From a virus (lineage: Duplodnaviria; Heunggongvirae; Uroviricota; Caudoviricetes): 6,095 nucleotides of DNA. How positions within the stretch are numbered: position 1 is the first letter of the stretch; each line of letters starts with the position of its first letter. A program made the position numbers and the translations under genes. The notes below the pieces were generated by a model. That model made no database searches, had not been told where the DNA came from, and saw nothing but the letters and a program-made list of their open reading frames with translations. Below, one piece after another: positions 958 through 1,566 of the stretch. Location of the stretch: IMG/VR virus record IMGVR_UViG_2534682255_000031; one strand, 5' to 3'.

Positions 958-994
958 TATGTGAAGTTCTTCGATGGTATGAAAGGTATTACAT

Positions 995-1028
995 AAAAGA
1001 ACCCAATGTTTATTGGGTTCTTTTTTTC
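995..1028 (+). terminator. Rho-independent terminator downstream of the AT-rich ORF
   Basis: Perfect 10-bp stem AGAACCCAAT (998-1007) / ATTGGGTTCT (1012-1021) with loop GTTT, followed by a T-run to 1027; an A-run precedes it, so it may work in both directions. Confidence 0.75.
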
Positions 1029-1531
1029 TCTATCAGTGCTATTAGCAGGGAGAGATATCACCGGAGTTTAATGTGTGATTTTTATTTATCGTCGAATCTG
1101 TATTGTTTATCATTGCTTTTCACAACGCTAACATCTAATAAGATTAGATATTCACTTCGTGAGAGCTTCATGCCTTGAGAGGATCTCAATTTTCTTTTGC
1201 AATGAGACAGGCGCTTCCTGTTGTTATGGTATAGTACCCCGTTATTGAGCCTCCTGAACAGTGATGCTGAATAACATAACCACATGATATATCGATAAAA
1301 TAATCTCTACATTTGAAAATGCACGGTAATTCTGAAATGCAAAAAATCAACCAAACCAGCGCAATGCCTGAAAAAACTGACGTTCACTGGAGTGGTCGGT
1401 TTAGCGTTGCACCAATGCTCGATAGGATGTACCGTTTTTGAAAAACAAATAGTTATATACTTTGTGGGAGCCTATTGGGAACCCGGCGTTTTCATTTCAA
1501 GGTGTAATCCATACGCGGCTTAAGAATGAGA

Positions 1532-1537
1532 TATAAT
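1532..1537 (+). promoter_or_regulatory. Candidate -10 hexamer (TATAAT) upstream of the GNAT-like ORF
   Basis: Exact TATAAT at 1532-1537, about 30 nt upstream of the start codon; no convincing -35 at 16-18 bp spacing. Confidence 0.25.
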
Positions 1538-1566
1538 GCGACTTTTAGTGTTCCGCTTGAGAGGCC

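Follow-up and report, generated by a model that had tools for sequence, protein, structure and literature searches.

Integration of mobile elements into the 5' end of dusA has been described before. The dusA-specific integrases (DAI) and the islands associated with them were defined by Farrugia et al. (2015, NAR 43:4547; PMC4482086), and Table S1 of that study lists for EC4115 (NC_011353.1, positions 5179273..5190127) an island of 10,855 bp that is labelled 'Phage remnant' and has prtN as its third CDS. In the available text of the same study, prtN homologs are reported in 64% of the dusA islands, and hence are not strictly defining, and the att sites are defined only by 21-bp semi-conserved core repeats. 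Experiments with the phage 1720a-02 showed that it integrates 100 bp into dusA and that attP is restored when it excises (PMC6328086).

The stretch of DNA analysed here, hereafter the window, comprises 6,095 nt of a viral record. Between its first open reading frame, a DUF2713 gene, and a GNAT-like gene lies a region of 609 bp (positions 958 to 1566) that an earlier note had read as an unusually long, AT-rich noncoding gap, typical of H-NS binding platforms and possibly holding a small RNA or the regulatory region of the GNAT-like gene. This gap is almost certainly attL, the left junction of a decayed prophage inserted in dusA of E. coli O157:H7. It is a composite and not a single entity, ordinary in kind and already explained, and it does not represent a new regulatory element. 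The junction is also already catalogued, as it belongs to the same element as the dusA-specific phage remnant of EC4115.

Results

Identity and chromosomal context of the window

Over 4,150 nt, the window and E. coli O157:H7 EC4115 agree without a single mismatch. The annotated dusA fragment of EC4115 ends at 5179273, which is position 1423 of the window, and because of this identity window 1423 is the island boundary published by Farrugia et al. (2015); the feature is therefore already known. The prtN homolog of the element, on the minus strand at 2521-2802, is ECH74115_5532 in Table S1 of that study. Identification of the element with SpLE5 of the Sakai strain was rejected, as the literature places SpLE5 at tRNA-Leu beside SpLE6.

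For gene order, the annotation of a 100% identical genome was used (NZ_CP030767, a 40.7-kb locus, L001). Its left end carries zur, the DUF2713 gene (window 1-957), a 105-nt dusA' pseudogene (window 1319-1423) and a degraded prophage, whose first genes are a hypothetical 177-aa gene, a 57-aa gene, a PrtN-family gene and a truncated exonuclease. Further genes of the prophage include a methyltransferase with an internal stop, yfdR, tail fragments, Lom, tail fibres and three DUF1076 genes, and the right end of the locus is formed by DinI, a tyrosine integrase, full-length dusA and pspG. The full-length dusA, which adjoins the integrase, lies 10.8 kb from the junction in the window. In K-12, the DUF2713 gene is followed by a spacer of 362 bp and then by intact dusA and pspG, with no insertion between them. 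A megablast search of complete E. coli genomes with positions 900-1620 as the query matched 900-1422 in 4,372 of the 5,426 genomes, and the match ran beyond 1422 in only 609.

Native flank, dusA stub and attachment core

The left part of the region is made up of the following chromosomal features and the attachment core.

1-957, plus strand: chromosomal DUF2713 gene (yjbL/yjbM equivalent), intact, 318 aa (Pfam DUF2713, E=1.4e-143; WP_000912588.1)
958-1318, plus strand: native intergenic region between DUF2713 (yjbLM) and dusA, collinear with positions 3056-3417 of the K-12 locus (L002)
995-1031 (hairpin 995-1024), plus strand: intrinsic terminator of the DUF2713 gene, a 13-bp stem followed by a T run, found by a terminator scan
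1227-1235, plus strand: candidate extended -10 element of the native dusA promoter, TGGTATAGT, within the invariant block (our own reading, with no scan match)
1319-1423, plus strand: first 35 codons of the original dusA, now orphaned (annotated in RefSeq as the pseudogene 'tRNA-dihydrouridine synthase, missing C-terminus')
1396-1422, plus strand: attL identity block of 27 nt, TCGGTTTAGCGTTGCACCAATGCTCGA, from a three-way alignment of attL (window 1290-1520), attB (K-12 dusA) and attR

The DUF2713 gene, which is frameshifted in K-12, is the left chromosomal flank and lies outside the island, and its terminator is kept in other E. coli. Downstream of the gene, the sequence from 958 to about 1160 varies among E. 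coli, and that from about 1160 to 1318 is nearly invariant. This invariant block probably holds the promoter and 5' untranslated region of dusA, now orphaned, and TGGTATAGT is the best candidate that we could read in it for the position of the promoter. A similar motif, TATGnTATAGTAC, is found at a comparable distance upstream of the dusA 5' end that is supplied by the element; since this copy doubles as coding sequence for the integrase N-terminus on the opposite strand, the resemblance is suggestive only. Scans of the plus strand within the gap with the sigma-70 consensus gave no full promoter match. A scan of GTDB genomes for relatives of DUF2713 returned only four Escherichia/Shigella loci, too shallow a set for a covariation analysis of the native intergenic region. 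The literature under the name yjbM is mainly concerned with an unrelated gene of Bacillus subtilis.

The dusA' stub is identical to the 5' end of K-12 dusA. Native dusA runs to ...GCACCAATGCTCGA at 1422 and unrelated sequence follows from 1423 on. Divergence from the K-12 gene, following codon 35, sets in at base 1423, and the 5' end of dusA is interrupted at this one site. The reading frame of the stub continues across the junction to a total of 40 codons, 35 of them native and five derived from the phage (RMYRF), and is closed by a TGA at 1439-1441 that forms the centre of a palindrome, GTTTTTGAAAAAC. At attR, a replacement of the first 35 codons, about 85% identical to the original, is in frame with the rest of the full-length annotated dusA. 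The ends of the island thus carry direct repeats of 105 nt that are about 85% identical, inside which the 27-nt block is identical in attL, attB and attR.

The right part of this block, ATGCTCGA (1415-1422), is common to the related elements compared (six), except that of strain 181.1, which reads ATGCTTGA. ATGCTCGA likely contains the crossover point, which sequence alone narrows down no further than to the 27-nt block. The attB published for 1720a-02 (reverse complement GCTCCCATGCTCGACTGGA) coincides with window positions 1408-1426. The attP of mEp460 differs from the attR of the O157 element at three positions inside the 27-nt block, which gene conversion or descent from another parental allele could explain.

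Reconstructed attP and related phages

Joining the left part of attR to the right part of attL gives a predicted attP of 367 nt. This sequence is contiguous in the lambdoid phage mEp460 (100% coverage, 97% identity) and is split between both ends of records in prophage format, for example that of phage 1720a-02. The gene order of mEp460, namely int on the minus strand, attP, gp23 (177 aa), gp24 (57 aa), a PrtN-family 'excisionase' on the minus strand and an exonuclease on the minus strand, is collinear with the window from 1423 onward. The tyrosine integrase of the O157 element is encoded on the minus strand at 30089-31186 of the 40.7-kb locus, 88 bp from the start of dusA (Pfam Phage_integrase, E=1.1e-20). 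It is 100% identical to the integrase of mEp460_4F5 and agrees with the integrase of 1720a-02 at 362 of 364 residues, and is thus nearly identical to an integrase validated for integration into dusA.

Phage P' arm

To the right of the core, the phage arm can be divided into the following parts.

1423-1483, plus strand: P' arm of the phage attP and first 61 bp of the island, conserved across relatives, with homology splitting after 1483
1434-1446 (+12 to +24 from the core), no strand assigned: palindrome GTTTTTGAAAAAC, in the A/T-rich spacer that separates the core from the IHF-like site, holding the stop codon of dusA'
1443-1455 (+21 to +33 from the core), plus strand: putative IHF-like site AAACAAATAGTTA, with one mismatch to WATCAANNNNTTR
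1465-1483, plus strand: direct repeats TGGGAGCC (1465-1472) and TGGGAACC (1476-1483), putative arm-type integrase sites P'1 and P'2

The P' arm is identical at 58-61 of its 61 positions in mEp460, 1720a-02, DEC9B, CFS3292 and 181.1, and the sequence directly after 1483 belongs to at least three unrelated cargo modules among these relatives. The exchanged modules include a GNAT-fold pair, a Panacea-domain pair and others. The first gene slot past the P' arm is a hot spot for the exchange of cargo modules.

The palindrome, which the earlier note had singled out, is present at exactly 1434-1446. It is broken by a T>C change in CFS3292 and has no counterpart at the equivalent position in the Morganella phage IME1369_02, and its symmetry is therefore best regarded as incidental to an A/T-rich spacer. 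At the identical offset of +21 to +33, the Morganella phage carries TATCAATAAGATA, again with one mismatch to the IHF consensus. The repeats of the O157 element follow the word YGGGARCC, and five of the seven sites with this word in the 40.7-kb locus fall on the two att arms, three on the P arm, where they adjoin the integrase gene and one of the three is inverted, and two on the P' arm. Under a Poisson model, five copies would fall within 300 bp with a probability of about 5e-10. Their offsets from the core are -171, -156 and -144 on the P arm and +43 and +54 on the P' arm. The Morganella phage, the integrase of which is 68% identical to that of the O157 element, has a word of its own, TGGTGTCC, at -169, -156 and -144 on the P arm and at +43 and +53 on the P' arm. 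The repeated word thus co-varies with the integrase at conserved offsets, as would be expected of arm-type Int sites accompanied by an IHF bend site, and we infer these functions for the repeats and for the IHF-like site. This base-level anatomy of the arm is a minor new detail.

Cargo module and first phage genes

The features from 1484 onward are as follows.

1484-1569, plus strand: upstream region of the cargo module, with TATAAT at 1532-1537 and the Shine-Dalgarno sequence GAGAGG at 1559-1564; homology splits by cargo module at 1484
1570-2103, plus strand: phage cargo gene, homolog of mEp460 gp23, encoding a 177-aa protein with a predicted GNAT fold (PHROG 4350, unknown function)
2300-2473, plus strand: 57-aa cargo gene, homolog of mEp460 gp24 (PHROG 2741, unknown function)
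2492-2517, plus strand: strong intrinsic terminator closing the rightward unit
2521-2802, minus strand: PrtN-family protein (RefSeq PrtN family; PHROG 1300 'excisionase', E=1.1e-39)

The RefSeq start of the cargo gene is the ATG at 1570, 5 nt after GAGAGG, and with this start the gap ends at 1569 rather than at 1566. Its upstream region, 1484-1569, is conserved in mEp460 upstream of gp23, and a scan of these positions with the sigma-70 consensus gave no full match.

For the 177-aa protein, searches yielded no Pfam family at E<=0.1, no match to a PADLOC model and no match below E=0.45 in a sequence search of the PDB. Its AF2 model, built on 42 Enterobacterales homologs, has a pLDDT of 90.7, and the top 50 Foldseek matches in the PDB are nearly all GNAT enzymes or members of the superfamily (probability 1.00, TM 0.45-0.6), the toxins AtaT, KacT and TacT being included among the top matches. 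Because this confident model matches GNATs throughout the top of the list, the predicted GNAT fold holds, and the label GNAT-like given by the earlier note is supported at the level of the modelled fold, though sequence profiles detect none. The protein conforms neither to a curated GNAT sequence profile nor to the canonical acetyl-CoA motif; an invariant H108-P-L-x-G-R-M segment shows, in our own reading, a partial resemblance to Q/RxxGxG/A. The 57-aa protein has no PADLOC or Pfam match. The counterpart of the PrtN-family protein is annotated as an excisionase in mEp460, and judged by these family assignments the protein is probably the excisionase of the element. The genes for the integrase and for the PrtN-like protein are both intact in the remnant.

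Composition of the gap

The GC content is 38.3% in the gap, 34.1% in the DUF2713 gene, 41.9% in the 178-aa gene that follows and 43.1% in the whole window. The gap is AT-rich, as was noted earlier, but it is not more so than its left neighbour. With a minimum arm length of 5 nt it contains two palindromes, and with a minimum of 6 nt only one, counts that are reached in 44% and 32% of first-order Markov shuffles, respectively; the palindromic tracts are not in excess.

No intact gene is found in positions 958-1566, the longest overlapping ORF being 67 aa, and to this extent the description of the gap as noncoding is confirmed; however, 1319-1423 are the first 35 codons of a conserved gene. A conserved coding gene spanning the region, which the earlier note had named as evidence against its own reading, is thus present in part, as the dusA fragment only. 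The apparently unusual length is explained by the sum of a native spacer (362 bp in K-12), the 105-nt dusA fragment and 146 bp of phage DNA up to the start at 1570. Horizontal acquisition applies from 1423 on, where the DNA is that of a phage, but not to 958-1318, which make up 60% of the gap and are native, being found in about 4,370 of the 5,426 genomes. The last 86 bp or so (1484-1569) travel with the GNAT-like gene as its own upstream region, and in this the earlier note was right in part.

Discussion

The arrangement of the locus can be accounted for by a simple series of events. A lambdoid phage of the mEp460/1720a-02 type almost certainly integrated site-specifically into codons ~27-35 of the chromosomal dusA, its tyrosine integrase recombining attP with an attB inside the gene. 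One arm of attP carries a 5' end of dusA with a putative surrogate promoter, and at attR, outside the window, this phage-supplied 5' end is joined in frame to the remaining dusA, so that the gene stays intact. At attL, the probable original promoter, the 5' untranslated region and the first 35 codons stayed in place and now abut the phage P' arm. The prophage has since decayed to a remnant of about 10.8 kb that is fixed in genomes of the O157:H7 type. Read from left to right, the 609 bp begin with the terminator of DUF2713 and the native intergenic sequence that probably holds the dusA promoter, continue with the dusA' stub and the att core, and end with the P' arm and the sequence upstream of the first cargo gene. 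No observation speaks against this structural account. The identity of each segment, the position of the junction, the rebuilt attP and the closeness of the integrase to that of 1720a-02 are shown, and the labels given to the arm-type sites, the IHF-like site and the promoter are inferred from position, conservation and co-variation.

H-NS prefers AT-rich DNA, and the GC contents of the gap (38.3%) and of the DUF2713 gene (34.1%) are compatible with this preference. It could be supposed, then, that the gap is chiefly a horizontally acquired platform, bound and silenced by H-NS and controlling the GNAT-like gene, the more so as 1484-1569 are the cargo gene's own upstream region. This is unlikely, as 958-1422 are native chromosome in most E. 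coli and lie outside the island, integration fully accounts for the origin of the gap, and the palindromes are no more numerous than in shuffled sequence; a literature search for yjbM together with H-NS found nothing. Any binding of H-NS would add to the explanation of the gap as attL and would not replace it. That the gap encodes a small regulatory RNA is considerably less probable still. The probable promoter at 1227-1235 may give rise to an orphaned short transcript or ORF, and a bona fide small RNA, sRNA-17 of E. coli K1, is known from a prophage of the mEp460 type (PMC7719688). However, the covariance scan that the earlier note had suggested, run with Rfam 15 at permissive E-values, gave sub-threshold matches only, all on the DUF2713 terminator and with the top matches on its hairpin, the highest score being 26.5 bits where the gathering score is 60. 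When 1025-1241 and 1242-1572 were folded as RNA, the MFE z-scores were +0.42 and -0.08, and between 1031 and 2492 there is no terminator to bound a short RNA, save a weak 5-bp stem at 1920-1933. Neither the window nor the O157 island nor the attP region of mEp460 matches the primers, the probe or the 5' sequence of sRNA-17 beyond 11-12-mers of the kind that arise by chance. Finally, the presence of a fragment of a conserved gene could point to an error of sequencing or assembly, such that a corrected sequence would show intact dusA across the region. The probability of this is close to nil: the same junction is shared by 609 complete genomes, which makes an assembly artefact very unlikely, the full-length dusA is found 10.8 kb away beside the integrase, and the window is identical to EC4115.

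A further proposal complements the interpretation of the gap as attL and does not exclude it. The displaced dusA promoter may have been co-opted, reading the 40 codons of dusA' and continuing through att into the GNAT-fold and 57-aa genes, with the surrogate promoter driving the restored dusA. The invariant block with TGGTATAGT upstream of dusA' is consistent with such a role. The plus strand is free of terminators from 1031 to 2492-2517, apart from the same weak stem, which lies inside the 177-aa gene, and the cargo gene's upstream region has no full sigma-70 match, and for these two reasons the orphaned promoter could read into both cargo genes. In the free phage mEp460, moreover, gp23 is likewise preceded by a dusA' stub, the surrogate one, at the same position. 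On the other hand, the TATAAT at 1532-1537 may suffice as an independent promoter, Rho-dependent termination is plausible in the 128-nt untranslated spacer after the dusA' stop, and the likeness of the surrogate '-10' may merely reflect coding for the integrase N-terminus on the opposite strand. Co-option is therefore put forward tentatively, as a possibility that we consider somewhat doubtful. The fuller form of this idea is a reciprocal promoter swap, in which the orphaned promoter and its 40-codon leader would become a lysogen-specific driver of a cargo operon ending at 2492-2517, and the slot after the arm would be an exchange site fed by the host promoter; this seems rather unlikely on the sequence evidence.

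With the gap taken as attL, the main value of the analysis is a clean negative, in that a suspected H-NS platform or small RNA locus turns out to be an attL scar with a boundary already published to the base. Added to this are the anatomy of the P' arm of a dusA-targeting attP, the slot for cargo exchange and the orphaned promoter. Integration at the 5' end would leave a host promoter pointing into the cargo genes of the phage and, if that promoter is active, this would offer a simple route to the expression of lysogenic-conversion or defence genes from a housekeeping promoter.

Comparison with known systems

The closest system is the EC4115 phage remnant, which is the same element: integration is at the 5' end of dusA, a surrogate 5' end is supplied at attR and the original 5' end forms the outer boundary, the prtN homolog is the third gene, and the integrase adjoins dusA, all as here. 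The features by which dusA islands are recognised are accordingly found in the element, that is, a site in the 5' end of dusA, an integrase beside the restored dusA, a new in-frame 5' end and flanking imperfect repeats. In their available text, Farrugia et al. (PMC4482086) do not treat the arm repeats, the IHF-like site or what may have become of the orphaned promoter.

Among free phages, mEp460 (NC_019716) and 1720a-02/Phi-stx2dact (KF030445) have integrases that are 99-100% identical to that of the O157 element. For mEp460, the attP is 97% identical and the order int-attP-gp23-gp24-PrtN-exo is the same, while 1720a-02 carries a different cargo module past the P' arm. Both are complete inducible phages of about 44-47 kb, whereas the O157 element is a remnant of about 10.8 kb with pseudogenes and a large internal deletion.

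The attP and attL of phage lambda are more distant parallels. As in lambda, a short core is embedded in a longer att site and an IHF-consensus-like site lies between the core and the P' repeats; a further likeness is the repeated octamer on both arms at fixed offsets, the word of which co-varies with the integrase in a relative with 68% identity. Unlike lambda, the O157 element has an integrase of a different tyrosine-recombinase lineage, an att site inside a protein-coding gene and a probable recombination-directionality factor, PrtN-like, located across attP from int, with two cargo genes between.

Comparable insertions within a gene are those of e14 and phage 21 in icd of E. coli, where a substitute gene end keeps the host gene functional and a displaced pseudogene fragment is left at the other junction, as in the dusA element. 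At icd it is the 3' end of the gene that is replaced, whereas at dusA the 5' end is replaced together with its promoter, and for this reason a promoter-bearing stub is orphaned at dusA.

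Variable cargo behind the att arm

Locus comparison indicates that related dusA prophages differ in what they carry from the end of the 61-bp att arm to the PrtN-family gene. In the window element, DEC9B and phage mEp460 this slot is occupied by a gene pair encoding a 177-aa protein, with a GNAT fold predicted by modelling, and a 57-aa protein; CFS3292 and strain 181.1 carry a Panacea-domain protein plus a hypothetical protein, and phage 1720a-02 has a third, different sequence.

Window 1484-2520; CFS3292 (L003) 3583-4711; 181.1 (L004) 4078-5206; 1720a-02 (L013, reverse) after the arm: cargo slot
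Window 1570-2103: gene of the 177-aa GNAT-fold protein
Window 2300-2473: gene of the 57-aa protein

The slot behind the arm thus resembles a hot spot at which genes of an accessory or defence type are exchanged. The structural neighbours of the 177-aa protein include the tRNA-acetylating toxins AtaT, KacT and TacT, and its gene is followed by that of the 57-aa protein, which is conserved and has no family assignment. The two might form a defence pair or one of toxin-antitoxin type, though PADLOC models gave no match to either protein.

Decay and retention of the prophage remnant

Several annotated genes bear on the decay and retention of the element, including those at the integrase end of the NZ_CP030767 locus (L001), which is identical to the window where the two coincide.

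Window 2839-3198: pseudogene, 3'-5' exonuclease lacking its N-terminus
Window 3491-3964: pseudogene, SAM-dependent methyltransferase with an internal stop
Window 4966-5382, minus strand: truncated DUF2303 early gene
Window 5370-6092, plus strand: truncated tail-tip gene
L001 27621-29618: three consecutive DUF1076 genes, just ahead of the integrase end

The truncated early gene overlaps the truncated tail-tip gene at window 5370-5382 (L001 24471-24483). This site looks like the junction of a deletion that took out the greater part of the phage, including the genes for replication, lysis and the head and most of those for the tail, and left a remnant of ~10.8 kb. The three DUF1076 genes, which encode the NleG-type effector domain, may explain retention of the remnant in the O157:H7-type lineage.

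History of the dusA site

The chromosomal flank was compared across strains, including 181.1 (L004).

Window 1-957; K-12 (L002), CFS3292 (L003) and DEC9B (L005) 2070-3055: DUF2713 gene (annotation)

This gene is intact (318 aa) in O157:H7, but the annotations of K-12 W3110, CFS3292 and DEC9B give it as a pseudogene with a frameshift, and it is missing from the zur-to-prophage interval of 181.1. With a GC content of 34%, it has the look of a long-standing accessory gene that is decaying. In 181.1, attL has on its chromosomal side (L004 3990-4016) a different dusA 5' variant, CCGTTTCTCGATTGCCCCGATGCTTGA, which may be a surrogate 5' end left by an earlier element; serial occupation of the dusA site would in that case be implied. 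Over the core-proximal 27 nt, attP of mEp460 (L006 3703-3729) differs at 3 positions from the O157 attR (L001 31352-31378), while the latter is identical to native attB. This points to one of two origins: descent from another parental allele, or gene conversion involving the two 105-nt direct repeats, which are ~85% identical.

L001 31170-31186; Morganella phage IME1369_02 (L014, reverse) about 38-60: candidate surrogate dusA promoter

The opposite strand of this candidate promoter, which reads TGTTATAGT in O157 and TGGTATAAT in the Morganella phage, carries the integrase start codon and the codons that follow it, and integrase and surrogate dusA 5' end would thus form a compact divergent arrangement.
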